DNA from: Escherichia coli
GTDB taxonomy: Bacteria; Pseudomonadota; Gammaproteobacteria; Enterobacterales; Enterobacteriaceae
Assembly: GCF_044324875.1 (NCBI RefSeq)
Contig: NZ_CP172185.1
Direction: 5' to 3' (one strand)
DNA length: 64,000 nt
The stretch's first letter is position 1; each line of letters begins with the position of its first letter. Positions 9,779 through 39,970 of this stretch are shown here, piece after piece. Position numbers and translations under genes: made by a program. The notes under the pieces were generated by a model that saw nothing but the letters and a program-made list of their open reading frames with translations, was not told where the DNA came from and searched no databases.

Positions 9779-10057
<279 letters not shown>

Positions 10058-10081
10058 TCATCCTCTTTATCGACTCACGCG

Positions 10082-11134
10082 CTAAACCGGCGCGCCAGTG
10101 CGTAACTGCTGTAACAAACGCTCCACGGGAGCCGCCAGGCCAACTGACGGCGGTTGCGCTAAGTTATACCAGAGCGCATTGCCTTCATCCATGCAGCCGG
10201 TGAATGACGACACGGGAAGCCACATAGGCACAATATCTAAGTGGAAATGGCTGAAGGTATGCCGAAACGCAGTCAGCTGCGTCAGGTTATCGGCAGAAAT
10301 CTGTCGTTGCGCCAGCCACTGCCGCAAACTTTCTTCATCGGCAAACTGCGGGAAACAGTATAAACCGCCCCACAATCCGCTCGGCGGACGCTGCGCCAGC
10401 AATACTTCATCTTCGTGCTGTAACAGCAAAAAGTAGCCGGTGCGCTCTGGCAGCGTCTGTTTCGGTTTTTTGCCCGGATAAAGCGACCAGCTATTGTTGG
10501 CGGCGGCAATACATCCGTTTTGTAGCGGACAGAGCGAACATTTCGGCTTAGAGCGCGTACAAATCATCGCGCCCAAATCCATCATCGCCTGATTAAACCG
10601 TTCCACGCCAACCGCGGGCGTCACCTGCTCGCTCAAACTCCATAGTTTATTCTCGACCTCTTTTTTCCCAGGCCAGCCGCTTACAGCATAGCAGCGCGCC
10701 AGCACCCGTTTGACGTTACCGTCGAGAATCGGAAAGTGCTTACCCAGAGAAAGCGAGAGAATCGCGCCGGCGGTGGAACGCCCGACGCCCGGTAACGCCG
10801 CGACTTCTTCAAAGGTTTCCGGGAATTTACCGCTGTGTAAGGTGGCCACTTGCTGTGCCGCTTTATGCAGATTGCGCGCGCGGGCGTAATAGCCAAGCCC
10901 GGTCCACAAGTGGAGAACTTCATCCAGCGGTGCATTGGCGAGATCGGTCACCGTCGGGAAGCGCGCCATAAAGCGTTCAAAATAGGGGATAACGGTCGCA
11001 ACCTGAGTTTGTTGCAACATCACTTCTGAGAGCCATACTTTGTAGGGCGTCTTGTCAATTTGCCAGGGCAGAGTTTTTCGCCCGTATTTACCGTACCAGT
11101 CCAGAACCTGGGCTGAAAATTGCGACGCTTGCAT
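10082..11134 (-). CDS. mutY: Adenine DNA glycosylase
   Basis: Translation from [14 protein letters not shown] matches MutY; Cys cluster [17 protein letters not shown] present. Confidence 0.95.
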
Positions 11135-11294
11135 GGTCACCGAATTCACTGTTGTTGGGGGCAAGATTGCAGCACAGCGACGGCAGGGTGTAAACCGGAA
11201 CTTTCCGCAGCCACGGCCTTATCATGCTTGCATCCGGCAACTAACTTTGGATAATGCCCGTTTTCAGAACACTTTCACAAGCGACTAAATCTTT

Positions 11295-12014
11295 ATGAAA
11301 AACGACGTCATCTCACCGGAATTTGATGAAAACGGCCGCCCACTGCGCCGTATCCGTAGTTTTGTGCGCCGCCAGGGGCGACTGACCAAAGGCCAGGAAC
11401 ATGCGCTGGAAAACTACTGGCCGGTGATGGGCGTTGAGTTCAGCGAAGATATGCTGGATTTCCCTGCGCTTTTTGGCCGTGAAGCGCCGGTGACGCTTGA
11501 GATTGGTTTCGGCATGGGGGCGTCGCTGGTGGCAATGGCTAAAGATCGCCCCGAGCAGGACTTCCTCGGCATTGAAGTGCATTCACCGGGCGTTGGTGCG
11601 TGCCTGGCTTCTGCGCATGAAGAGGGCTTAAGCAACCTGCGCGTGATGTGTCACGATGCGGTTGAAGTGCTGCATAAAATGATTCCTGACAATTCATTGC
11701 GCATGGTGCAGCTCTTTTTCCCTGACCCGTGGCACAAAGCGCGCCATAATAAACGCCGTATCGTTCAGGTGCCGTTTGCCGAACTGGTAAAAAGCAAACT
11801 GCAACTGGGGGGCGTATTCCATATGGCGACCGACTGGGAACCTTATGCGGAACATATGCTTGAAGTGATGTCTTCTATTGACGGGTATAAAAACCTGTCA
11901 GAGAGCAATGATTACGTACCGCGTCCGGCATCACGTCCGGTGACGAAATTTGAACAACGTGGTCATCGTCTTGGTCACGGAGTATGGGACTTAATGTTCG
12001 AGAGGGTGAAATAA
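11295..12014 (+). CDS. trmB: tRNA (guanine46-N7)-methyltransferase
   Basis: 239-aa ORF matching TrmB/YggH. Confidence 0.95.
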
Positions 12015-12340
12015 TGGCAAAGAACCGTAGCCGTCGTCTGCGTAAAAAAATGCACATCGACGAATTCCAGGAATTAGGATTTTCGGTGGCATGGCGATTC
12101 CCGGAAGGTACATCGGAAGAACAGATTGATAAAACCGTTGATGACTTTATTAACGAGGTTATCGAACCGAACAAACTGGCCTTTGACGGCAGCGGTTATC
12201 TGGCCTGGGAAGGTCTAATCTGCATGCAGGAAATCGGCAAATGCACCGAAGAACATCAGGCGATTGTGCGTAAGTGGCTGGAAGAGCGCAAACTGGGCGA
12301 GGTACGCACCAGCGAACTTTTCGACGTTTGGTGGGACTAA
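12014..12340 (+). CDS. yggL: DUF469 protein YggL
   Basis: [23 protein letters not shown]; start overlaps the trmB stop (ATAATG). Confidence 0.9.
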   Translation: MAKNRSRRLRKKMHIDEFQELGFSVAWRFPEGTSEEQIDKTVDDFINEVIEPNKLAFDGSGYLAWEGLICMQEIGKCTEEHQAIVRKWLEERKLGEVRTSELFDVWWD

Positions 12341-12371
12341 GAAAGCATACGGGCGATGACAAATGCAAAAC

Positions 12372-12455
<84 letters not shown>

Positions 12456-12523
12456 ATGACATGTACTTTGTTATCAATCTGGGGCCAGCAAATGCTGGCC
12501 TGATTTGTTCTTGAGGGAAGACT

Positions 12524-13243
12524 ATGATGCGCAAAATGCTGCTGGCGGCAGCACTTTCAGTGACGGCGATGACCGCTCACGCCGACTACCAGTGCAGCGT
12601 CACGCCGCGTGACGATGTGATTGTCAGCCCGCAAACCGTGCAGGTGAAGGGCGAAAACGGCAATCTGGTGATCACGCCAGACGGCAACGTGATGTATAAC
12701 GGTAAGCAATATTCCCTGAATGCCGCCCAGCGCGAGCAGGCGAAGGATTATCAGGCTGAACTGCGTAGCACGCTGCCGTGGATTGATGAAGGTGCGAAAA
12801 GCCGCGTCGAGAAAGCCCGTATTGCGCTGGATAAAATTATCGTTCAGGAGATGGGCGAAAGCAGCAAAATGCGCAGCCGTCTGACCAAACTTGATGCGCA
12901 GCTGAAAGAGCAGATGAACCGCATTATCGAAACGCGCAGCGATGGCCTGACGTTTCACTATAAAGCCATTGATCAGGTTCGCGCCGAAGGCCAGCAATTA
13001 GTGAATCAGGCAATGGGCGGAATTTTACAGGACAGCATTAATGAAATGGGCGCGAAAGCGGTGCTGAAAAGCGGCGGTAACCCATTACAGAATGTGCTGG
13101 GAAGCCTGGGCGGTCTGCAATCCTCAATCCAAACCGAATGGAAAAAGCAGGAAAAAGATTTCCAACAGTTTGGCAAAGATGTTTGTAGCCGCGTTGTGAC
13201 TCTGGAAGATAGCCGCAAAGCCCTGGTCGGGAATTTAAAATAA
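12524..13243 (+). CDS. yggN: Periplasmic DUF2884 protein YggN
   Basis: Signal peptide MMRKMLLAAALSVTAMTAHA; matches YggN. Confidence 0.9.
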   Translation: MMRKMLLAAALSVTAMTAHADYQCSVTPRDDVIVSPQTVQVKGENGNLVITPDGNVMYNGKQYSLNAAQREQAKDYQAELRSTLPWIDEGAKSRVEKARIALDKIIVQEMGESSKMRSRLTKLDAQLKEQMNRIIETRSDGLTFHYKAIDQVRAEGQQLVNQAMGGILQDSINEMGAKAVLKSGGNPLQNVLGSLGGLQSSIQTEWKKQEKDFQQFGKDVCSRVVTLEDSRKALVGNLK

Positions 13244-13418
13244 TCCTCTATTTTAAGACGGCATAATACTTTTTTATGCCGTTTAATTCTTCGTTTTGTT
13301 ACCTGCCTCTAACTTTGTAGATCTCCAAAATATATTCACGTTGTAAATTGTTTAACGTCAAATTTCCCATACAAAGCTAAGGGATAATGCGTAGCGTTCA
13401 CGTAACTGGAGGAATGAA

Positions 13419-14465
13419 ATGGAGTTTTTCAAAAAGACGGCACTTGCCGCACTGGTTATGGGTTTTAGTGGTGCAGCATTGGCATTACCCAATATCACCA
13501 TTTTAGCAACCGGCGGGACCATTGCCGGTGGTGGTGACTCCGCAACCAAATCTAACTACACAGCGGGTAAAGTTGGCGTAGAAAATCTGGTTAATGCGGT
13601 GCCGCAACTGAAGGACATTGCGAACGTTAAAGGCGAGCAGGTAGTGAATATCGGCTCCCAGGACATGAACGATAATGTCTGGCTGACACTGGCGAAAAAA
13701 ATTAACACCGACTGCGATAAAACCGACGGCTTCGTCATTACCCACGGTACCGACACGATGGAAGAAACCGCTTACTTCCTCGACCTGACGGTGAAATGCG
13801 ACAAACCGGTGGTGATGGTCGGCGCAATGCGCCCGTCCACGTCCATGAGCGCAGACGGTCCATTCAACCTGTATAACGCGGTAGTGACCGCAGCTGATAA
13901 AGCCTCCGCTAATCGTGGCGTGCTGGTGGTAATGAACGACACCGTACTGGACGGTCGCGATGTCACCAAAACCAATACCACCGACGTAGCGACCTTCAAG
14001 TCTGTTAACTACGGTCCTCTGGGATACATTCACAACGGTAAGATTGACTACCAACGTACCCCGGCACGTAAGCACACCAGCGATACGCCGTTCGATATCT
14101 CTAAGCTGAATGAGCTGCCGAAAGTCGGCATCGTTTATAACTACGCTAACGCATCCGATCTTCCGGCTAAAGCACTGGTAGATGCGGGCTATGATGGCAT
14201 CGTTAGCGCTGGTGTGGGTAATGGTAACCTGTATAAATCCGTGTTCGACACCCTTGCAACCGCCGCGAAAAACGGCACTGCAGTAGTGCGTTCTTCCCGC
14301 GTACCGACGGGCGCTACCACTCAGGATGCCGAAGTGGATGATGCGAAATACGGCTTCGTCGCCTCTGGCACGCTGAACCCGCAAAAAGCGCGCGTCCTGC
14401 TGCAGCTGGCTCTGACGCAAACCAAAGATCCGCAGCAGATCCAGCAGATCTTCAATCAGTACTAA
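13419..14465 (+). CDS. ansB: L-asparaginase II (periplasmic)
   Basis: Full-length match to AnsB (348 aa) including signal peptide and TGGTIAG motif. Confidence 0.95.
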   Translation: MEFFKKTALAALVMGFSGAALALPNITILATGGTIAGGGDSATKSNYTAGKVGVENLVNAVPQLKDIANVKGEQVVNIGSQDMNDNVWLTLAKKINTDCDKTDGFVITHGTDTMEETAYFLDLTVKCDKPVVMVGAMRPSTSMSADGPFNLYNAVVTAADKASANRGVLVVMNDTVLDGRDVTKTNTTDVATFKSVNYGPLGYIHNGKIDYQRTPARKHTSDTPFDISKLNELPKVGIVYNYANASDLPAKALVDAGYDGIVSAGVGNGNLYKSVFDTLATAAKNGTAVVRSSRVPTGATTQDAEVDDAKYGFVASGTLNPQKARVLLQLALTQTKDPQQIQQIFNQY

Positions 14466-14472
14466 TCACCTC

Positions 14473-14499
14473 GCCCCGGTAACGTGCCGGGGCTTTTTC
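14473..14499 (+). terminator. Intrinsic terminator after ansB
   Basis: GCCCCGGTAACGTGCCGGGGC hairpin followed by TTTTT. Confidence 0.6.
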
Positions 14500-14581
14500 A
14501 CTTCAGACTTACGTCCATTGCCAATTTTCATCACCCTAATGATAATCACCAGAATAAATTATTCCGCGCGAGGGTTTTCGG

Positions 14582-15589
14582 GTGAAAAAGCAATGGATTG
14601 TTGGCACGGCGCTGATTATGTTGATGACTGGTAATGTCTGGGCAGATGGCGAACCGCCAACTGAAAATATCTTAAAAGATCAATTCAAAAAGCAGTATCA
14701 CGGCATTCTCAAGCTTGATGCTATCAGCTTAAAAAATCTTGATGCTAAGGGTAATCAGGCCACCTGGTCAGCGGAAGGCGATGTCTCTTCCAGTGACGAT
14801 CTCTATACCTGGGTCGGTCAGTTGGCAGATTACGAACTGCTCGAACAGACCTGGACGAAAGATAAACCGGTAAAATTCTCGGCGATGTTAACCAGTAAAG
14901 GAACGCCCGCGTCTGGCTGGTCGGTGAACTTTTACTCTTTTCAGGCGGCAGCCAGCGATCGTGGGCGGGTGGTCGACGATATCAAAACGAATAATAAATA
15001 TCTGATCGTGAATAGCGAAGATTTCAATTATCGCTTTAGTCAGCTTGAGTCTGCGTTGAATAACCAGAAGAACTCGATTCCTGCGCTGGAAAAGGAAGTG
15101 AAAGCGCTTGATAAGCAAATGGTGGCGGCGCAGAAAGCAGCGGATGCATATTGGGGAAAAGATGCAAACGGTAAGCAAATGACCCGCGAAGACGCCTTTA
15201 AAAAAATTCACCAACAGCGTGATGAGTTTAATAAACAGAACGATAGCGAGGCGTTCGCGGTTAAATATGACAAAGAGGTTTATCAACCGGCGATTGCGGC
15301 ATGTCATAAACAGAGTGCAGAGTGTTATGAAGTGCCGATTCAGCAGAAGCGAGATTTCGATATCAACGAACAACGGCGACAGACTTTTCTGCAATCACAA
15401 AAACTTAGCCGTAAATTGCAGGATGACTGGATAACGCTCGAAAAAGGGCAATATCCGTTAACGATGAAAGTTTCAGAAATAAACAGTAAAAAAGTCGCTA
15501 TTTTGATGAAAATTGATGATATCAACCAGGCTAATGAACGCTGGAAAAAAGATACCGAACAACTGCGGCGCAATGGAGTGATTAAGTAA
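14582..15589 (+). CDS. yggM: Periplasmic DUF1202 protein YggM
   Basis: GTG start; signal peptide; matches YggM. Confidence 0.85.
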   Translation: MKKQWIVGTALIMLMTGNVWADGEPPTENILKDQFKKQYHGILKLDAISLKNLDAKGNQATWSAEGDVSSSDDLYTWVGQLADYELLEQTWTKDKPVKFSAMLTSKGTPASGWSVNFYSFQAAASDRGRVVDDIKTNNKYLIVNSEDFNYRFSQLESALNNQKNSIPALEKEVKALDKQMVAAQKAADAYWGKDANGKQMTREDAFKKIHQQRDEFNKQNDSEAFAVKYDKEVYQPAIAACHKQSAECYEVPIQQKRDFDINEQRRQTFLQSQKLSRKLQDDWITLEKGQYPLTMKVSEINSKKVAILMKIDDINQANERWKKDTEQLRRNGVIK

Positions 15590-15607
15590 CTCATGTTAAG
15601 TACCTTT

Positions 15608-15646
15608 GCCGGATAATATAAAAAGTTATCCGGCAAATTATTTTTT
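15608..15646 (+). terminator. Intrinsic terminator after yggM
   Basis: GCCGGATAA/TTATCCGGC hairpin followed by a T-rich run. Confidence 0.55.
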
Positions 15647-16946
15647 ACATTAGCCCTAGTAGCTGTGGAATGAACAAGGATATTTGCGGGATGTAAGTGA
15701 TCATCATCAACGCGATTAACAATGCGGCATAAAATGGCAGCAATGGTTTGATCAAATGTTGAATCTTCACACCTGAAATAGAACAACCAACAAATAGCGC
15801 ACTACCCACCGGCGGTGTTAACAGCCCAATACAAAGGTTAGCCACCATCATAATACCGAAATGTACCGGATCCATTCCCAGCTCTTGTGCAATCGGCAAG
15901 AAGATTGGTGTGAAGATTAGTACAGCCGGTGTCATGTCCATAAAGATGCCGACAATTAATAAGACGATATTAATCAGCAGCAATATGATCAGTGGGTTAT
16001 CAGAAATCCCCATCAACGCGTCGCTGATCATATAAGGAATATCAGCATTGGTCATTGACCAGGACATGCCCACGGAAAAACCGATCAACAGTAATACAAT
16101 CGAAGTGGTAACAACCGATTCCAGAATCAGTTTGGGTAAATCGCGCCATTTTACTTCCCGGTAAATCAGCACCGAGAGAATAAATGTGTAGACAACGGCA
16201 ATCGCAGACGCTTCAGTTGCGGTAAAAATGCCGCCCAGAATGCCGCCCATTACAATGAACACCAGAAGCAAACTTGGTAAGGCATCCAGAAACGCTTTAC
16301 AGGCCTGAGCAAAGGTTGCTCTTTCTGAAAGTGGGTAGCCACGGCGTTTAGCAATAATGCCGCAGACTATCATTACCGCAAGACCCATTAAGATCCCTGG
16401 CAAATATCCCGCCATAAATAACGATGCTACAGAAACGCCGCCAGCTGTCAGGGAAAACACAATTAACACGTTTGAGGGCGGTATCAGTAATCCAGTAATA
16501 CAGGATGAGACGTTTACAGCGGTAGAAAATGCCGGATCATAACCTTCTTTGGTCTGAATGGGATTCAGTGTGCCACCAACGGCAGCAGCTGCCGCAACGG
16601 CTGAACCAGAAATGGAACCAAACATCATATTCGCCAGGACGTTCACATGACCAAGCGAACCAGGAACGCGGCCAACCATTACCTGGGCGAGGTTAATCAA
16701 ACGTATCGCAATACCGCCGCTGTTCATCAGCGTTCCGGCAAAGATGAAAAAGGGGATTGCCAACAGGGCAAAGTTATCCAGTCCATTAGCCAGTCGCTGC
16801 GAAACAGTGATTGCCGCGATATCCCAGGGAAACATCAAAAGCATTGAAGCTACAGTGGCAATACCGATTGAGAACGAAATGGGCACACCAATAAAGACCA
16901 GCACAAAAAAACAGCCAAACAGTGTAAGCGCGATATAACTATCCAT
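15645..16946 (-). CDS. TRAP transporter large permease subunit (DctM family)
   Basis: 433-aa polytopic membrane protein with DctM-like sequence; start overlaps the upstream dctQ-like stop (TAATG). Confidence 0.85.
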   Translation of the reverse strand: MDSYIALTLFGCFFVLVFIGVPISFSIGIATVASMLLMFPWDIAAITVSQRLANGLDNFALLAIPFFIFAGTLMNSGGIAIRLINLAQVMVGRVPGSLGHVNVLANMMFGSISGSAVAAAAAVGGTLNPIQTKEGYDPAFSTAVNVSSCITGLLIPPSNVLIVFSLTAGGVSVASLFMAGYLPGILMGLAVMIVCGIIAKRRGYPLSERATFAQACKAFLDALPSLLLVFIVMGGILGGIFTATEASAIAVVYTFILSVLIYREVKWRDLPKLILESVVTTSIVLLLIGFSVGMSWSMTNADIPYMISDALMGISDNPLIILLLINIVLLIVGIFMDMTPAVLIFTPIFLPIAQELGMDPVHFGIMMVANLCIGLLTPPVGSALFVGCSISGVKIQHLIKPLLPFYAALLIALMMITYIPQISLFIPQLLGLM

Positions 16947-17458
16947 TAACTGGCCTCCTGCGCAGGTTGTTTCAGTTGTTGAATGCTTTGATTAATAAAA
17001 CACAAGGCATAAAACATCATCACCAATCCACTTAATGGCAGAATGATATATACGTATCCCATCGGTATTTGCATCGCGGCAGATACCTGTGATGTTGCCA
17101 GTGTTTTATCAATTAATTTCAGGCCACCAGTCACAATGACCGAACCGGCAAAACCTAAAATAAGAACGTTAATGACTATACTAAGAAGTAATTGCTTGCG
17201 CTTATTCAGGGCGAGAGCAAATAAATCGATAGAGAGATGTCTCTGCGCGCCGACGGTATATGCAGCACCTAATAATCCTACCCAGATCATCAAAAAGCGT
17301 GCTAGCTCATCGGTTAATGTACTTGGCTGGTTAAGTACGTAGCGGCTAAATACTTGCCAGACTACGCATACAACCAGAGCAAGCATTACGGCGACAGAAA
17401 ACGCGGCAATGACGCGGTCTACCGCAAGTTTCAGGCGGTTAAATATCATTGTAAGCAT
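16946..17458 (-). CDS. TRAP transporter small permease subunit (DctQ family)
   Basis: 170-aa four-helix membrane protein lying between the SBP and large permease genes. Confidence 0.8.
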   Translation of the reverse strand: MLTMIFNRLKLAVDRVIAAFSVAVMLALVVCVVWQVFSRYVLNQPSTLTDELARFLMIWVGLLGAAYTVGAQRHLSIDLFALALNKRKQLLLSIVINVLILGFAGSVIVTGGLKLIDKTLATSQVSAAMQIPMGYVYIILPLSGLVMMFYALCFINQSIQQLKQPAQEAS

Positions 17459-17493
17459 CCTGGAAAATCAGGGCCAGAGACTGGCCCGGAATA

Positions 17494-18480
17494 TTATTGA
17501 GCAGCGTTGTCGAATTTCTCTAACAAAGCAGCTTGTTTTGGATCTTTTTTGAAGTCGTCAAACAGAGGCTGAACTGCGGCACGGAATGGGGCTTTATCAA
17601 CCTTAACGATTTCACCACCCATGGCTTTCGCCTGAGCACGTGTGTCAGCGTCAATTTTTTCCCACAATTTTTGTTGATAAGCTTCGGATTTCTTCGCCGC
17701 TGTTTCGAGGATTTGTTGCTGTTCTGGGGTTAATTTATTCCATGTTTTGGTGGAGATAACCAAAAAGTCAGGAATTGAGGCATGTTCATCTTCAGAAAAG
17801 ACTTTGGCAATTTCGATATGTCGAGTCTGCACCCAAGAAGGCACGTTATTTTCTGCGCCGTCTACTACACCTTGCTGCATCGCAGTATAAACTTCGCCAA
17901 ATGAAATTGGAGTGGGTGAGCCCCCCATCAGTTCAATCATTTTGATGGTGGTCGGGCTTGGCTGAACACGAATTTTCAGCCCTTTAAGATCTTCTGGCTT
18001 AGTAATCGGTTTTTTCGCATAGAAACTGCGTGTACCCGCTACATAAGCTGATAAAGCAAAAAAGCCTTTATCTTTTGTTGAATCCATAATTTCTTTACCA
18101 ACTTCACCAAAAACCACTTTGTTGAAGTGCGCCTGATCTTTAAATAAGAACGGCAAATTATAGATAGCATAAATATTATCAAAAGACTCCAGATCACTGG
18201 CGGAACCTTTGGTCATATCCAGTGCACCATTTTGCAACAACTCCATAGTTTCTCGCGCATTACCCATCTGGCTGCTGGGGTAAATACGGATCACCATATT
18301 ACCTTTTGACAGCTGTTTTACTTCTTTCGCCAGCTCTTCAAAACTCTGATGTACAACATGACTTCTTTCCAGGTTGTGTGCTAACTTTAACGTCACTTTT
18401 TCTGCGGCGTTTACGCCAGTGCTAACCAGAGCCAGCAAGGATGCGCAGACTAATGAGCGGGTAAATGACCTCATTTTCAT
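17494..18480 (-). CDS. TRAP transporter periplasmic solute-binding protein (DctP family)
   Basis: Signal peptide plus DctP-like sequence (GTRSFYAKKPI, QGVVDGAEN). Confidence 0.85.
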   Translation of the reverse strand: MKMRSFTRSLVCASLLALVSTGVNAAEKVTLKLAHNLERSHVVHQSFEELAKEVKQLSKGNMVIRIYPSSQMGNARETMELLQNGALDMTKGSASDLESFDNIYAIYNLPFLFKDQAHFNKVVFGEVGKEIMDSTKDKGFFALSAYVAGTRSFYAKKPITKPEDLKGLKIRVQPSPTTIKMIELMGGSPTPISFGEVYTAMQQGVVDGAENNVPSWVQTRHIEIAKVFSEDEHASIPDFLVISTKTWNKLTPEQQQILETAAKKSEAYQQKLWEKIDADTRAQAKAMGGEIVKVDKAPFRAAVQPLFDDFKKDPKQAALLEKFDNAAQ

Positions 18481-18795
18481 AAAAAAACTCCCTGTTGAAG
18501 AATGGAAATTGGTTGATATCTAATTGTGATTATCAGTGCTTTGTGCGACAAATTGGTTAACCTGTCTGACAACTTGTCTATGTTTATCACAACTTGAAAT
18601 AAAGTCAGAAATTAAATATTAATTTTGTGCGCCAGGTTGTACATGTTTATAATCAATAAATGATGAGTAAGTATTCACTAAATATATATAATAAATGTCG
18701 TCGATATTTATTCAGTAAGGAAATATATTTTTGCCGAAGTAAATTAACGCGGGGGATAAAAGAAGTGATTAATGCGCCCGCAGGCGCATTAATGA

Positions 18796-19932
18796 TTACT
18801 CAGCGAGGAATAATTCAAGAAGTGAGTTTAAGAATAATTTACCATGCTCGGTTATCTGCCAGTAATCTGCACATTCTGTGAGATAACCCTGAGCGATAGC
18901 CTCGTCTAACTGAGGGCGAATAACTTCTTCAGAAAGGCCAGTATACTGGCTAAACTCCACGCGCGGCGCGGCTTCCAGCAGACGGAAGCGATTCATAAAG
19001 AACTCAAACGGCTTATCTGCAGCTTCGACATCACGCTGGCTTTCCAGATACCTTCCTTGCATAAAACCACGCGGATGACGCGTTTTGGTGGTACGCAGAA
19101 TGCGCCCATCCGGGAAGGTCACTTTGCCGTGCGCGCCGCAGCCAATACCAATGTAGTCGCCAAATCGCCAGTAGTTGAGATTGTGCTGGCACTGATAACC
19201 GGGTTTGGCGTAAGCGGATGTTTCATACTGCTGATAGCCCGCTGCGGTTAATAACTGATGCCCCTGTTCGAAAATATCCCACAGCGCGTCATCGTCCGGC
19301 AGTACAGGAGGGCGCGAGCCAAACAGCGTATTAGGTTCGATGGTCAGTTGATACCAGGAAAGATGTGGCGGATTCAGTTCAATAGCCTGGCGCAGATCGC
19401 CTAGCGCCTCTTCCAGTGATTGATCCGGCAGCCCATGCATCAAATCAAGGTTAAAACTACGTAACCCTAAACCGCTCGCCAGCTTCGCCGCTCGTTTCGC
19501 TTCTTGCGGGCCATGAATGCGCCCAAGTCGTTTCAGCTTTTCTTCGCTAAAACTCTGCACACCAATAGAGATGCGGTTCACACCAGCACGCTGATAATCG
19601 ACAAAGCGATCGGCTTCAACCGTACCAGGGTTCGCTTCCATAGTAATTTCTGCATCCGCTGCCAGCGGCAAACGCGCACGCACGCCGTCCAGCAGCGTTT
19701 GCATCGCCGGGCCGGAAAACAGGCTCGGCGTACCACCGCCAATAAAGATTGTCTGCACTTCACGGCCCTGAGCGTAAGCCACGTCGTTGTCCAGATCGCA
19801 AAGCAGATGCTGAACATAATCGTCGTGCGGCACTTCTCCTTTCAACGCGTGAGAGTTGAAATCGCAGTACGGGCATTTCTGCACGCACCACGGGATGTGA
19901 ATGTAGAGACTCAGCGGCGGTAATTTAACCAT
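18796..19932 (-). CDS. hemW: Radical-SAM heme chaperone HemW (YggW)
   Basis: CxxxCxxC radical-SAM motif (CVQKCPYC); matches HemW. Confidence 0.95.
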
Positions 19933-20518
19933 TACGTAAAGCGTCCAGCAGCAGTTTCAATGCCTGACCACGGTGGGAAATGGCGCTCTTTTCTTCGCGG
20001 GTCAGTTCGGCAGCGGTTTTCCCTTCGGAAGGTACGAAGAAGATTGGATCATAACCAAAGCCGCCAGTGCCCGCTGGTTCACGAGTAATCACACCCGGCC
20101 AGCTGCCGTGGCACACCAGCGGAGTGGGATCTTCCGCGTGACGCAGATATACCAGCACGCAGTGGAAACGTGCCTGACGTTGGTCGTCCGGTACGTCTTT
20201 CATTGTTTCCAGCAGTTTTTGCAGGTTCTTTTGATCGGTCGCGTCTTCACCGGAATAACGCGCGGAGTAAATACCCGGCGCGCCACCCAGCGCATCTACC
20301 GCCAGACCGGAGTCGTCGGCAATTGCCGGTAAACCGGTCACTTTTGCCGCATGGCGCGCTTTCAGAATCGCGTTTTCGATAAAGGTCAGGCCGGTTTCTT
20401 CAGCGGAATCTACGCCGAGGTCTGTTTGGGCCACGATATCAAGACCGAAGTCGCTAAGCAGCGACGCCAGCTCACGCACTTTACCGGCATTGCCGGTTGC
20501 GAGGACAACTTTTTGCAT
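19925..20518 (-). CDS. rdgB: dITP/XTP pyrophosphatase
   Basis: [16 protein letters not shown]; matches RdgB (197 aa). Confidence 0.95.
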
Positions 20519-20525
20519 AGGATAC

Positions 20526-20828
20526 CTAATTAATTAACGCCGCGATTTCTGGCGGGATTTGTTGCGGATTAATGATTTTAATTTGTTTGTGGCGGCCAAG
20601 TTCGCCTTTTTCAATCACCACCTGGCTTTTGGCAACCCGGAATTGCTTACCGAGAAACTTCACCAGATGGCTGTTGGCCTGGCCGTCAACCGGCGGCGCG
20701 GTAATGGCGACTTTTACCTCGTCGCCATGTAAACCGACAATAGAATCACGGCTGGCTTTCGGCTGAATATAGAGCCGTAAAACCAGACCGTCATCATTAA
20801 TTGTTACGGCACTCATAACGCCATCCAC
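20526..20828 (-). CDS. yggU: DUF167 protein YggU
   Basis: 100-aa ORF in the conserved yggS-yggT-yggU-rdgB-hemW cluster. Confidence 0.85.
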
Positions 20829-21379
20829 AGCCCCGGCAGCAGCATGTTTCCGGTTGCCTGTAATACTTCTGCGACACCCATATTGATGACATACAGCAGC
20901 AGAACGAGGATCATCGGCGAGAAATCAATCCCACCCATTGCCGGTAGCAGGCGGCGAATCGGGCGCAGCAGCGGATCGGCCAGCTGAATCAGCACGTATT
21001 CAATCGGACTACGACCCTGGCTTACCCAGCTCATAATCGCCATCACCAGCAGGACCCAGAAAATCAGCAGGCCGATGGTTTTCAGCAGAATCAGTAAACC
21101 GGCAATCCAGATGATTGGCAGGAAGGTCACCACTTTAAACAGCACGATGGCTTTGATAAAACTGAGAATATAGGCAACCAGCAGCGAGGCGCTGTCAATG
21201 GGTCCCATTGCCGGAATAACGCGGCGCAGTGGCCCGATAATTGGCTGCGTTACCTTCACTACAAACTGTGAGAAGGGGTTGTAAAAATCACAATGAGCCC
21301 ACTGCATCCAGATGCGTAATAACAGCACCATGGTATACAGCTCAATGACCGTTGAAAGCAGGAAAGTCAACGTATTCAT
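20813..21379 (-). CDS. yggT: YggT-family membrane protein
   Basis: 188-aa membrane protein overlapping the yggU start. Confidence 0.85.
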
Positions 21380-21396
21380 GGCGTTCCTTTAATTCC

Positions 21397-38243: not shown

Positions 38244-39150
38244 ACTTAGTAGAGATAAACGGAACTGTACTGCCGGGGATCATGGTATCGGGCAGCTTAC
38301 CGTCCCAACGCTCTGCAGTGGTTAGGGCAACAAGTCCGGGATTATCCCGCAGAGCTTCACCGCGCAGGCGGATAGCTTCTGCTTCAGCCGCACTTTTTAA
38401 ACGAATAGTTTCAGCCTCTGCCGCGCCTCTTACGCGAATAGTCTCAGCTTCTGCTTTGGCTGCCGCCAGTTTACTGTCTGCTTCTGCCTGGGCCTGAGTT
38501 ACCGCTATTTGCGCCTGGATTTTCTCTGTTTCCAGATTTTGCTTACGTGTGGCAATGGCGACTTCTGCTTTCATTCGGTCTTCAATCGACTTTTCATAAG
38601 CGTCAGAAAAATCAATATTTTCAATCTGAACACCATCAATCACCACCGGGCCAACGACGGCTTTACGCATTGCATTTTGCAGATCCTGAACGAGTTTTGT
38701 ACGATCCTGTACGGCGCTGATGGCGGTATATTGGCCGAAAACGTTCTCCAGTTGAGTTGGCAACTGACGGACAATCAGACGATCTTTTAATGCTTCAATG
38801 GTGTTGTAGGTGGTATAAACCGCGCCTGCTTCTGAAGGTTTAATGTGGAAGCTGACTGATACTGTCATTTGTGCCGGTTGCTGGTCGCGGCTGTAGGCCT
38901 GTAATCCCTGATAAACCACAGCCTGATTACGCGTGGAAATTTTCTCCACGCTTTCCATAAAAGGGATCTTAAAACCCAGCCCCGGCTCGGCAACTTTCAC
39001 GATTTTTCCGTAGCGCAGCAAAATGCCGCGTTCACCTTCATTAACGGTGTAATACGAGAGAAATGGCAGCACAACCACGGCAAGCACGCCAATGACGATA
39101 GCAATAGATTTTTGTGGGCGAAATGAGGTTATTGAAACAGGTGCTTTCAT
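38242..39150 (-). CDS. SPFH/band-7 (prohibitin/stomatin-like) membrane protein, about 302 aa
   Basis: N-terminal TM helix, SPFH core, C-terminal Ala/Glu-rich coiled coil (AEAETIRVRGAAEAETIRLKSAAEAEAIRLRGE); start at 39150 has an AAGGAAG RBS. Not in the K-12 gene order I recall. Confidence 0.75.
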   Translation of the reverse strand: MKAPVSITSFRPQKSIAIVIGVLAVVVLPFLSYYTVNEGERGILLRYGKIVKVAEPGLGFKIPFMESVEKISTRNQAVVYQGLQAYSRDQQPAQMTVSVSFHIKPSEAGAVYTTYNTIEALKDRLIVRQLPTQLENVFGQYTAISAVQDRTKLVQDLQNAMRKAVVGPVVIDGVQIENIDFSDAYEKSIEDRMKAEVAIATRKQNLETEKIQAQIAVTQAQAEADSKLAAAKAEAETIRVRGAAEAETIRLKSAAEAEAIRLRGEALRDNPGLVALTTAERWDGKLPDTMIPGSTVPFISTK

Positions 39151-39526
39151 ATGAATCTTCCTTGAGTAAAGTGGGGAATATGTCACATGAGGTGAGGAGA
39201 AAATAGCCGACAGGTGAGAATTCAGAATCTATAAAGGGGTATAGCGAAAAAACATTGCATTAAAAAAGTATGTTTTCGGACATTCAATAAATAAATGGCG
39301 ATATGCAGCACAAATACAACAACAATCAAAATGTTGATTTTGTGATAAACATAGCAAATACAAAGTTGACTTTAAAAATATCAATTTCATGTTGTTGTTA
39401 TTTAAAGTTTTATTATTTTTACTCATGGGGTTTTTCTTCTCGCGTACCCAATTGCTTTCATTAAACCGCACGAGTATTTTATTTTTACCGCCGGACGGTA
39501 CCCTAAAAATAAAATAAGGATAATTT

Positions 39527-39970
39527 ATGCGGTTTATTGATTATTTTCCAGAATCATCAATCTCAGTTATACATTCAGCAAAAGATTGGCAGGAAGCTAT
39601 CGATTTCTCGATGGCATCATTGCTGGATAAAAACTATATCAACGAGAATTACATTCAGGCAATTAAAGATTCCACCATTAACAATGGCCCTTATTATATT
39701 CTCGCGTCAGGTGTGGCAATGCCTCATGCTCGACCGGAATGTGGGGCGCTTAAAACCGGGATGTCTTTAACGTTACTTAAACAAGGTGTTTATTTTCCGG
39801 GGAATGACGAACCGATAAAATTACTCATCGGCCTTTCTGCTGCCGATGCCGATTCGCACATTGGCGCTATTCAGGCGTTAAGTGAATTATTGTGTGAAGA
39901 AGAAATACTCAACCAATTATTAACAGCAGCATCAGAAAAACAATTAGCGGACATTATCAGCCGCGGATAA
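39527..39970 (+). CDS. cmtB: PTS mannitol-family EIIA (cryptic)
   Basis: 147-aa ORF with conserved His region (VAMPHAR); matches CmtB. Confidence 0.9.
   Translation: MRFIDYFPESSISVIHSAKDWQEAIDFSMASLLDKNYINENYIQAIKDSTINNGPYYILASGVAMPHARPECGALKTGMSLTLLKQGVYFPGNDEPIKLLIGLSAADADSHIGAIQALSELLCEEEILNQLLTAASEKQLADIISRG

Follow-up and report, generated by a model that had tools for sequence, protein, structure and literature searches.

Among the closest described systems is STM3169-STM3171 of Salmonella Typhimurium, a D-glucuronate TRAP transporter (Herman et al. 2020, PMC7660916; Haneda et al. 2010, PMC3022708) whose binding protein, STM3169, has a Kd of 0.17 µM for D-glucuronate (PMC7660916). The system has also been linked to macrophage survival, with a reported role in virulence. 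Structures are also available for hexuronate-binding TRAP proteins from alpha-/beta-proteobacteria or Firmicutes, namely Bamb_6123 (4N15/4LN5), Xaut (4OVR), Bpro_3107 (4MHF/4MIJ), Apre_1383 (4N91), Rsph17029_2138 (4X8R) and BBta_0128 (4N8Y); glucuronate is bound in 4N91, both glucuronate and galacturonate in 4MHF (PMC7660916), galacturonate in 4N8Y and glucuronate in 4X8R (PMC11668362). Furthermore, uncharacterised operons of Aeromonas and Pantoea sp. IMH are linked to galacturonate pathway genes and exuR. In the reference strain Escherichia coli K-12, ExuT is, to our knowledge, the only hexuronate carrier, and YiaMNO, the 2,3-diketo-L-gulonate transporter, the sole TRAP system. ExuT belongs to an unrelated family (MFS, exu regulon) and is a single-component proton symporter without a binding protein.

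We characterized a dctPQM operon found in a 64,000-nucleotide stretch of E. coli DNA (the window), and compared it with these systems. The account we favour, and hold to be reasonably likely, is that the operon is functional, takes hexuronates of the Ashwell pathway as its substrate, would be controlled in trans by ExuR, and belongs to an ancestral hemW locus that was lost in K-12.

A complete TRAP transporter operon between yggM and hemW

The slot between yggM and hemW holds three intact open reading frames, dctP-dctQ-dctM (15645-18480, minus strand), with the following features:

14582-15589, plus strand: yggM (DUF1202), left flank, convergent with dctM (PF06717, E = 6e-195; RefSeq names the matching gene of strain EFF60 yggM)
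15605-15637, no strand assigned: terminator-like hairpin in the gap where yggM and dctM converge (13-bp stem, then a T-run on the plus strand)
15645-16946, minus strand: dctM, large TRAP permease (433 aa; TIGR00786 472.5 bits, cut-off 268; PF06808 spans 1-413 of 413)
16946-17449, minus strand: dctQ, small TRAP permease (167 aa, 504 bp from the RefSeq-type start; PF04290 105 bits)
17471-17487, minus strand: GC-rich hairpin just 3' of the dctP stop
17494-18480, minus strand: dctP, periplasmic substrate-binding protein (328 aa; TIGR00787 285.7 bits, cut-off 175; PF03480 283.8 bits)
18481-18795, minus strand: AT-rich regulatory region of the operon (315 bp)
18768-18793, minus strand: hemW terminator-like hairpin, separating hemW from the TRAP promoter region (11-bp stem and T-rich tail)
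18796-19932, minus strand: hemW, right flank, upstream of the operon and on the same strand (TIGR00539 473 bits)

Each subunit exceeds its curated cut-offs by a wide margin (PF03480/TIGR00787, PF04290 and PF06808/TIGR00786), and the N-terminus of DctP is a signal peptide (..VNA/AEK). The locus is a DctP-type TRAP transporter (TC 2.A.56) with binding protein, DctQ and DctM contiguous, and the preliminary description of a complete three-gene operon was correct. STM3169-STM3171 is likewise a P-Q-M three-gene operon without linked catabolic genes or regulator, and at this locus, too, we saw no adjacent regulator gene, in agreement with what had been described. An Rfam scan of 15400-19000 gave one chance-level match only.

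The longest open reading frame of dctQ is 16946-17458; the RefSeq-style start at 17449 has an AGGA 8 nt ahead of its ATG. The dctQ stop codon shares one base with the dctM start (TAATG), and AGGAGG lies 9 nt upstream; this makes the translational coupling proposed in the preliminary description plausible. The hairpin after dctP is kept at that position in 12 other genera or species while its stem sequences differ, and probably stabilises the mRNA or terminates part of the transcription, increasing the amount of P over that of Q and M. Together, this conserved hairpin and the one-base overlap would set the subunit ratio. The operon had also been placed on the strand opposite to its neighbours; this holds for yggM only, since the operon lies directly downstream of the hemW terminator-like hairpin, on the same strand as hemW-rdgB.

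Substrate prediction for the binding protein DctP

We predict that the transporter probably takes up D-galacturonate and/or D-glucuronate, based on the nearest solved structures, the residues shared with STM3169, and the uxa/uxu/exuR context of its relatives. Among solved structures, the best sequence matches (E values of 1e-59 to 4e-68) and the best fold matches (Foldseek, TM 0.80-0.82 normalised to the query) were to Bamb_6123, Xaut (4ovr), Bpro_3107, Apre_1383 and Rsph17029_2138. The structure-solved hexuronate binders are only 37-39% identical to DctP; however, the equivalents of R151, R171 and N211 are conserved in them. We take 4OVR, 4N15 and 4LN5 to be structures with a hexuronate bound. 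The DctP fold model pairs with TRAP binding proteins at a TM of about 0.8, and is poor over residues 190-225, the stretch containing N211 and N212.

DctP is 46-47% identical to STM3169 (60% for DctM), the two systems have their nearest PDB relatives in common, and five of the seven modelled glucuronate contacts of STM3169, a set described for STM3169 and Apre_1383 alike, are retained: R150, R170, N210, N35 and D237 correspond to R151, R171, N211, N36 and D238 in DctP, both arginines included. R171 is invariant in the alignment, and its counterpart R170 is the conserved arginine that, in TRAP binding proteins, pairs with the substrate carboxylate. The remaining two contacts, Q36 and E74, are replaced by L37 and A75 in DctP and in all orthologues; Glu at the A75 position occurs in 4ovr and 4n15. 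Furthermore, STM3169 is a paralogue encoded at the plsC-ftsP locus, not in the hemW slot. The TRAP system described in strain BEN2908 was also considered and is a different one, located at ygiQ..ftsP.

The Aeromonas and Pantoea sp. IMH operons, the closest relatives beyond the ortholog group (DctP 60%, DctM 75% identical), are divergent from uxaC-uxaB-uxaA and have exuR on their other side, with NCBIfam models identifying each of these four genes; the E. coli operon, in contrast, is unlinked. At lower identity, a 53% representative lies beside a GntR/FCD regulator and uxaA, uxaB and uxaC, and 52% representatives lie beside either a Mannitol_dh gene or a GntR/FCD regulator and uxuA. Linkage to Ashwell-pathway genes (uxaC, uxaB/uxaA, uxuA/uxuB) was seen only in these 52-60% relatives, with none of these genes here or at any hemW-dctPQM locus, and the gene neighbourhoods in Buttiauxella, Edwardsiella and Enterobacillus held no hint of the substrate. 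Our literature search found no binding or transport measurement for this ortholog group, in line with the preliminary description, and nothing specific to the locus; a hexuronate is a prediction.

Transport of another sugar acid, such as a keto-deoxy or unsaturated uronate, an aldonate (mannonate, altronate or galactonate), fructuronate or tagaturonate, is conceivable but unlikely. The two replaced STM3169 contacts (Q to L, E to A), fixed in all orthologues, would be consistent with such a substrate, as would a Mangrovibacter operon, 82% identical, that adjoins a protein with a weak oligoalginate-lyase-like match; membership of the ExuR regulon would also be compatible with pathway intermediates. 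However, N36, L37 and the lack of the Glu recur in the 60% relatives linked to uxaCBA/exuR, so the changes fit a hexuronate cluster, and all of the nearest solved relatives with ligands confirmed in publications (4N91, 4MHF, 4N8Y and 4X8R) bind glucuronate or galacturonate. The same fixed Gln-to-Leu and Glu-to-Ala changes, with the lyase-like neighbour in one genus, have a further possible reading, which we offer as speculation of low probability: DctP may prefer a different uronate to free glucuronate, either galacturonate and nothing else or an unsaturated or keto-deoxy uronate that comes from the host or the diet. Retention of the operon in ST131 (ExPEC) and in O26 and O111 (EHEC) might then reflect a niche advantage comparable to the virulence role reported for STM3169.

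Candidate operators in the upstream region

The 315-bp spacer has a GC content of 31.7%, compared with 50.9% for the window, which places it among the lowest 0.55% of 315-bp windows and agrees with its earlier description as AT-rich. Within it we located the following elements:

18506-18523, minus strand: operator-like box 3, TTAGATATCAACCAATTT, 32 bp downstream of box 2; its AGATATnnnACCA is conserved over hemW-dctPQM loci
18538-18554, minus strand: operator-like box 2, AATTTGTCGCACAAAGC, 21 bp downstream of box 1; its ATGTCATACAG block is nearly invariant between genera
18550-18567, no strand assigned: even-spaced palindrome AAATTGGTTAACCTGTCT, matching 13 of 16 positions of the even-spaced consensus, joint best in the 64-kb window
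18559-18575, minus strand: operator-like box 1, AAGTTGTCAGACAGGTT, of GntR/FadR type and ExuR-like; conserved in 30 loci, 16.9 bits
18579-18595, minus strand: TGTGA motif, upstream of box 1 and possibly half of a CRP site; TGTGA occurs in nearly all aligned loci

The three phased boxes, of the form AGaTGTCnnACAa, are conserved between genera, also where the operon has another genomic position, and, within an otherwise diverging spacer, about 30 loci of more than 10 genera retain boxes 1 and 2. A box matrix trained on non-Escherichia boxes only, and used to scan about 102 kb, placed the DNA upstream of K-12 uxaB first (21.4 bits), box 1 of the operon second (16.9) and the K-12 uxaC/exuT spacer third (16.9). 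That a matrix derived from the boxes of other genera picks out K-12 uxaB and uxaC/exuT DNA suggests control in trans by ExuR. Box 3 AGATATnnnACCA and the uxaC-proximal TTATCACACCAATTTCC of K-12 are a single indel apart, and the 13-nt core of the palindrome, GGTTAACCAATTT, recurs unchanged in a palindrome of the K-12 spacer between gntP and uxuA; the even-spaced consensus used for scoring is presumably the ExuR/UxuR motif. Similar GntR-type boxes are present in the uxaC-dctP spacer of the Aeromonas and Pantoea sp. IMH operons. STM3169 is reportedly under ppGpp and SsrB control. GntR/FadR-type operators of different regulators are alike, and sequence by itself does not separate ExuR from UxuR or a further paralogue.

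A sigma-70 consensus scan detected no promoter on the minus strand of the spacer, and the -10-like GATAAT of Klebsiella and Kluyvera is replaced in E. coli. In the arrangement that we propose, the operon would have a promoter to itself, located in the AT-rich spacer downstream of the hemW terminator. ExuR, the repressor of hexuronate genes, would repress it in trans, perhaps with UxuR, via three operators spaced 21 and 32 bp apart; the operon is probably CRP-dependent as well. A further layer of control by H-NS is conceivable.

Distribution in E. coli and evolutionary history

Of 5426 complete E. coli genomes, 1460-1492 (about 27%) carry the operon, without exception in the yggM-hemW slot, and the site is empty in about 72% (3911). 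Carriers include ST131, O26 and O111 strains; K-12 and O157 are without it. In K-12 MG1655, hemW and yggM are adjacent, as the preliminary description had stated of K-12, convergent and 154 bp apart, and REP elements occupy the gap in the genomes without the operon. Partial matches only were found in 32 genomes. In the empty slot of one of these, BS-04, we observed an apparent dctQ pseudogene fragment, in an assembly full of homopolymer artefacts, and we gave it no weight as evidence.

Beyond Escherichia, dctPQM follows hemW in the same orientation in at least seven genera (Salmonella, Citrobacter, Klebsiella, Kluyvera, Pseudocitrobacter, Pluralibacter and Phytobacter). Identities across those genera are 84-94% for DctP and 88-96% for DctM, compared with 87-92% for HemW, values that resemble those of the flanking core genes; among E. 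coli strains, synonymous divergence is alike in the operon and its flanks. Some Salmonella carry the true orthologue at hemW, and the LT2-type species representative gave no match. Taken together, the sequence comparisons indicate that this is an old enterobacterial locus, part of the ancestral hemW neighbourhood of the Enterobacteriaceae, and that K-12 is the deletion variant. The preliminary description had held that presence of the operon in most E. coli, with K-12 as the deletion variant and a known substrate, would overturn its reading; half of this was borne out, in that K-12 is the deletion variant but the operon occurs in about 27% of genomes and the substrate is a prediction.

The AT-rich upstream region had been read as a mark of horizontal acquisition, that is, of a recent genomic islet that entered some E. 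coli lineages and was silenced by H-NS at its promoter. We consider this improbable. It would account for the patchy occurrence in E. coli, for the GC content of the operon (44.6%, against 50.9% for the window and higher values in the flanks) and its spacer, and for the dctP allele of strain TUM10828, whose dS of 0.32 compared with 0.02-0.14 in its flanks suggests some recombination. However, the position of the operon after hemW in at least seven other genera leaves the reading as an acquired island unsupported, and both junctions are intact and identical in 1462-1468 E. coli genomes. No tRNA genes were found within 10000-24000, no integrase, IS or other mobility genes and no extra open reading frames with mobility-gene homology at the locus, and only short, chance-level flanking repeats. 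The spacer also fails as such a mark, being about 300 bp long and AT-rich (31-42% GC) in all of these genera, even in Klebsiella with its flanks of 58-59% GC, and containing the conserved operator boxes. A 14-nt imperfect direct repeat at both borders (family D6) was rejected as a chance match, since it does not line up with the K-12 junction.

A deviant base composition of the operon is seen in every genus examined, its GC content being 3-12 points below that of its own flanks. With this low GC content here, and with synonymous sites that have reached saturation in comparisons of genera, an ancient transfer or a replacement through homologous recombination is conceivable.

Very improbable is the view that the operon is a non-functional, decaying remnant on its way out of E. 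coli, which would fit its loss from about 72% of genomes, the genomes with partial matches only and the fragment in the poor BS-04 assembly; against it, none of the three open reading frames is truncated, here or at the four other E. coli loci examined, the ribosome-binding sites and operators are intact, and a protein identity of 90-95% with Salmonella, alongside saturation at synonymous sites, indicates purifying selection.

Discussion

The locus shares its three-component architecture with YiaMNO, and the family names would match a C4-dicarboxylate (DctPQM-like), 2,3-diketo-L-gulonate (YiaMNO-like) or sialic acid (SiaPQM-like) transporter, with weak NCBIfam matches to YiaM (38 bits) and YiaN (296 bits) and PDB matches to SiaP (E of about 1e-40); such a function is hardly credible, because the YiaM/YiaN equivalog cut-offs of 260/800 bits are far above these scores, SiaP and DctP structures rank well under the hexuronate binders, the genome context of the relatives is uxa/uxu and not dct, yia or nan, and yiaMNO itself has another locus and operon context.

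As a hexuronate transporter, the system would work as expected from its family: DctP would capture the carboxylate sugar in the periplasm, and the DctQ-DctM membrane unit would import it, driven by an ion gradient. The imported hexuronate would then enter the Ashwell pathway through UxaC, followed by UxaB/UxaA or UxuB/UxuA. ExuT of K-12 has the same substrates as those predicted here and the same type of upstream operator, with the uxaC/exuT spacer among the best matches to the TRAP-derived matrix, and the TRAP system would be a high-affinity partner of this carrier.

Overall, this is an ordinary locus of moderate interest. It is, at the same time, a clear case in which absence from K-12 reflects loss and not gain by other strains. 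Hexuronates are known gut carbon sources of E. coli, and if the operon is a high-affinity, ExuR-controlled hexuronate scavenger, about one quarter of sequenced E. coli, including ST131, O26 and O111, would have an uptake capacity that is absent from K-12.

Operon structure

Open reading frames and family searches (Pfam and NCBIfam) confirmed an intact three-gene TRAP operon in the slot between yggM and hemW, with DctP, DctQ and DctM scoring far above the curated cut-offs and a typical signal peptide readable at the N-terminus of the binding protein DctP; the features that define a DctP-type TRAP transporter, as far as they can be tested, are present. The preliminary description had placed the operon on the strand opposite to its neighbors, which holds for yggM (plus versus minus) but not for hemW, with which the operon is co-directional.

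14582-15589, plus strand: yggM, left flank of the operon
15605-15637: hairpin between the convergent yggM and dctM
15645-16946, minus strand: dctM, intact, 433 aa
16946-17449/17458, minus strand: dctQ, intact
17471-17487: GC-rich hairpin directly 3' of dctP
17494-18480, minus strand: dctP, intact, 328 aa
18768-18793: hemW terminator-like hairpin, just upstream of the operon
18796-19932, minus strand: hemW, right flank of the operon

The coupled arrangement claimed for dctQ and dctM was borne out as a 1-base overlap (TAATG) with AGGAGG upstream. A counterpart of the hairpin following dctP, built from a different stem sequence, lies at the matching position in 12 other loci; this would suit a structural element that boosts the binding protein over the membrane subunits. 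The 315-bp spacer 5' of dctP (18481-18795), correctly flagged as AT-rich, has a GC content of 31.7%, within the lowest 0.55% of the window's 315-bp windows. Two more stretches of the window (~28770-29170 and ~39090-39690) are as AT-rich as this leader (315-bp windows at GC <= 0.33, minimum 0.289).

Distribution in E. coli

By megablast, 1492 of 5426 complete E. coli genomes contain the region (identity 95-99.6%), 1460 of them at full length and 32 as partial matches only. An intact junction was seen in 1468 genomes for hemW-dctP and in 1462 for yggM-dctM, indicating that the operon is essentially always in the yggM-hemW slot. Empty sites of the K-12 type, with several variants of the REP filling, were present in 3911 genomes; in K-12 itself, yggM and hemW are adjacent as the preliminary description had it, separated by 154 bp of REP-like sequence. 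The boundaries between presence and absence coincide exactly with the two stop codons. Among the strains sampled, carriers include ZH193 (an ST131 strain), O26 RM10386 and an O111:H11 strain, and the slot is empty in K-12, BL21(DE3), strain 042 and O157:H7 strains.

Strain BS-04 (NZ_CP172819.1; comparison locus L002, 5694-6394) has 207 bp of dctQ, with a pseudogene annotation, in an otherwise empty slot that also has the hemW hairpin typical of operon carriers; this suggests a deletion derivative, in an unreliable assembly riddled with homopolymer runs. Short contigs in genome bins from unrelated phyla, recorded as Collinsella sp., Bacillota bacterium and Alicyclobacillaceae (L006, L007, L047), carry the E. 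coli operon at 99-100% identity, most likely as E. coli contamination of these bins.

Conservation across genera

The horizontal acquisition proposed in the preliminary description is not supported by the synteny after hemW in other genera. Salmonella enterica has a gene between hemW and yggM, with unchanged orientation, whose product shares 90% identity with DctP. A survey of one genome per species gave 44 loci, and tblastn with the window's proteins showed dctP-dctQ-dctM next to hemW, in that order, in Citrobacter amalonaticus, C. braakii, C. sedlakii and six Klebsiella species, as well as in several Kluyvera, Pseudocitrobacter, Pluralibacter, Phytobacter and others; the operon lies elsewhere in the genome in Buttiauxella, Edwardsiella, Mangrovibacter and Enterobacillus. 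At the hemW-linked loci, identity to the window's proteins (DctP 84-94%, DctM 88-96%) is much like that of the flanks (HemW 87-92%, RdgB 84-94%). Synonymous divergence of the operon within E. coli (0.03-0.13) is on par with its flanks, and between genera it is saturated, with proteins still 90-95% identical.

The operon locus showed neither tRNA nor mobility genes and no flanking repeats of note; in this, and in its shared position across genera, it does not look like a mobile island. The operon (44.6% GC) lies below its flanks in all genera, and its low GC therefore need not be a sign of recent arrival in E. coli; the hemW-dctP spacer is ~300 bp with 31-42% GC in every genus, even with flanks of 58-59% GC.

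The simplest reading is that the locus is ancestral and was repeatedly lost, with K-12 a deletion variant. Ancient transfer, or allele replacement via homologous recombination, is possible; for allele replacement there is a hint in the divergent dctP of TUM10828. As for the ancestral reading, the preliminary description had associated a K-12 deletion with presence of the operon in most E. coli; only a minority carry it, but K-12 as the deletion variant holds as the simplest reading.

Within E. coli, hemW (compared with L003, L053 and L001) is unusually polymorphic, with dS of 0.14-0.25 against the window, including pairs in which both carry the operon, versus 0.01-0.09 for most genes nearby. 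yggM evolves very fast (L004, L012, L016, L023, L009-L011), with 63% identity in Salmonella and ~35% in Klebsiella and Kluyvera; in several Citrobacter no yggM match was found and ansB abuts dctM.

Regulatory region

Alignment of 32 upstream regions revealed a mostly diverged spacer with several conserved blocks, also where the operon occupies another genomic position, and a conserved TGTGA upstream of three operator-like boxes.

18559-18575: box 1, AGATGTCnGACAAC, conserved block in the alignment
18538-18554: box 2, ATGTCATACAG, conserved block in the alignment
18506-18523: box 3, AGATATnnnACCA, conserved mainly at hemW-linked loci

The boxes take the form TGT-n3-ACA, that of GntR/FadR-type operators, and their spacing of 21 and 32 bp places them on one helix face. 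Box 3 is one indel apart from a uxaC-proximal K-12 sequence, similar boxes occur in the uxaC-dctP spacers of exuR-linked Aeromonas and Pantoea operons, and the window's AAATTGGTTAACC has a 13-nt core, GGTTAACCAATTT, that is identical to a palindrome upstream of K-12 uxuA.

A weight matrix trained on boxes 1 and 2 of non-Escherichia loci only was scanned over ~102 kb (the window plus four K-12 regions), of which exu regulatory spacers make up ~1.5%. The highest-ranked site lies upstream of K-12 uxaB (21.4 bits), a member of the exu regulon, followed by box 1 of the window (16.9 bits) and then a site in the K-12 uxaC/exuT spacer (16.9 bits). The best site is a near-perfect palindrome, AAGATGTCAGACAACTT (L052, 5902-5918), ~220 bp 5' of uxaB and overlapping the dgcF stop. 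A further sequence, CAGATGTCATACAGGTT (L050, 4582-4598), ~150 bp inside K-12 uxaC, scored 14.5 bits with this TRAP-derived matrix and may be an additional ExuR-type site. ExuT and UxaC are targets of ExuR and UxuR (PMC9369180). We propose that ExuR, perhaps with UxuR, would repress the operon in trans, which would explain the absence of an adjacent regulator. No consensus promoter was found in the operon's upstream region; together with the conserved TGTGA, this hints at possible CRP dependence. The H-NS silencing proposed earlier is reduced to possible, putative H-NS binding at the AT-rich distal part of the spacer.

Predicted substrate

The best solved-structure sequence matches of DctP (4ovr, 4n15/4ln5, 4mhf/4mij, 4x8r, 4n91, 4n8y and 4xfe) are TRAP binding proteins of the Enzyme Function Initiative set, which are also the top fold matches of its AlphaFold model (pLDDT 81.6). 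The ligands include D-glucuronate (4N91) and both glucuronate and galacturonate (4MHF) (PMC7660916), galacturonate (4N8Y) and glucuronate (4X8R) (PMC11668362).

The one characterized enterobacterial relative is Salmonella STM3169, with a Kd of 0.17-0.25 uM for D-glucuronate (PMC7660916). We recovered its sequence from metagenome contigs with a 3'-end query from published primers (PMC3022708), and identified it by residue numbering and the plsC-ftsP neighborhood. Identity between STM3169 and DctP of the window is 46-47%, and between the DctM proteins of the two systems 60%, marking STM3169 as a paralogue at another locus. Five of its seven named contacts are kept (N36, R151, R171, N211, D238), whereas two are replaced in all DctP orthologues (L37 for Gln, A75 for Glu). 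B2 ExPEC strains such as BEN2908 and CFT073 have a further TRAP operon, at ygiQ..ftsP, accompanied by a regulator resembling FadR and by dehydrogenases resembling UxuB, YjjN and AllD (PMC12928451). In position and gene sizes it corresponds to the Salmonella STM3169-71 locus (L056), and some E. coli may thus have three TRAP systems.

The nearest proteins beyond the ortholog group, from Aeromonas and Pantoea sp. IMH (60% identical), have the Leu in common with the window's DctP and likewise lack the Glu; their operons are divergent from uxaC, uxaB and uxaA and have exuR behind them, with uxaC, uxaB and exuR above NCBIfam cut-offs. Among the nearest 50%-cluster representatives, a 53% relative lies in a cluster of a GntR/FCD regulator, dctPQM, uxaA, uxaB and uxaC; at 52% identity, one representative shares an overlap with a Mannitol_dh gene, and behind another come genes for a GntR/FCD regulator and uxuA. 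Overall sequence, fold and most contact residues align the operon with the hexuronate-binding clade, but local gene linkage does not. The predicted substrate is most likely a hexuronate, and galacturonate is no less likely than glucuronate.

In Mangrovibacter yixingensis (L037, 5529-7619), an 82%-identical TRAP operon adjoins genes for a 696-aa protein that weakly matches oligoalginate lyase and for a sodium:solute symporter-like protein, neighbors that may point to uronates freed from polysaccharides. Mobilicoccus massiliensis (L048, 2191-5057 and 8094-10862) has two divergent TRAP operons in opposite orientation within 9 kb, with binding proteins 34% and 42% identical.

Ancestral synteny, the E. 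coli counts, paralogy with STM3169 and predicted ExuR control are newly added here. The locus matters mainly because a predicted route of hexuronate uptake, retained by many lineages both pathogenic and commensal, is missing from the reference strain.
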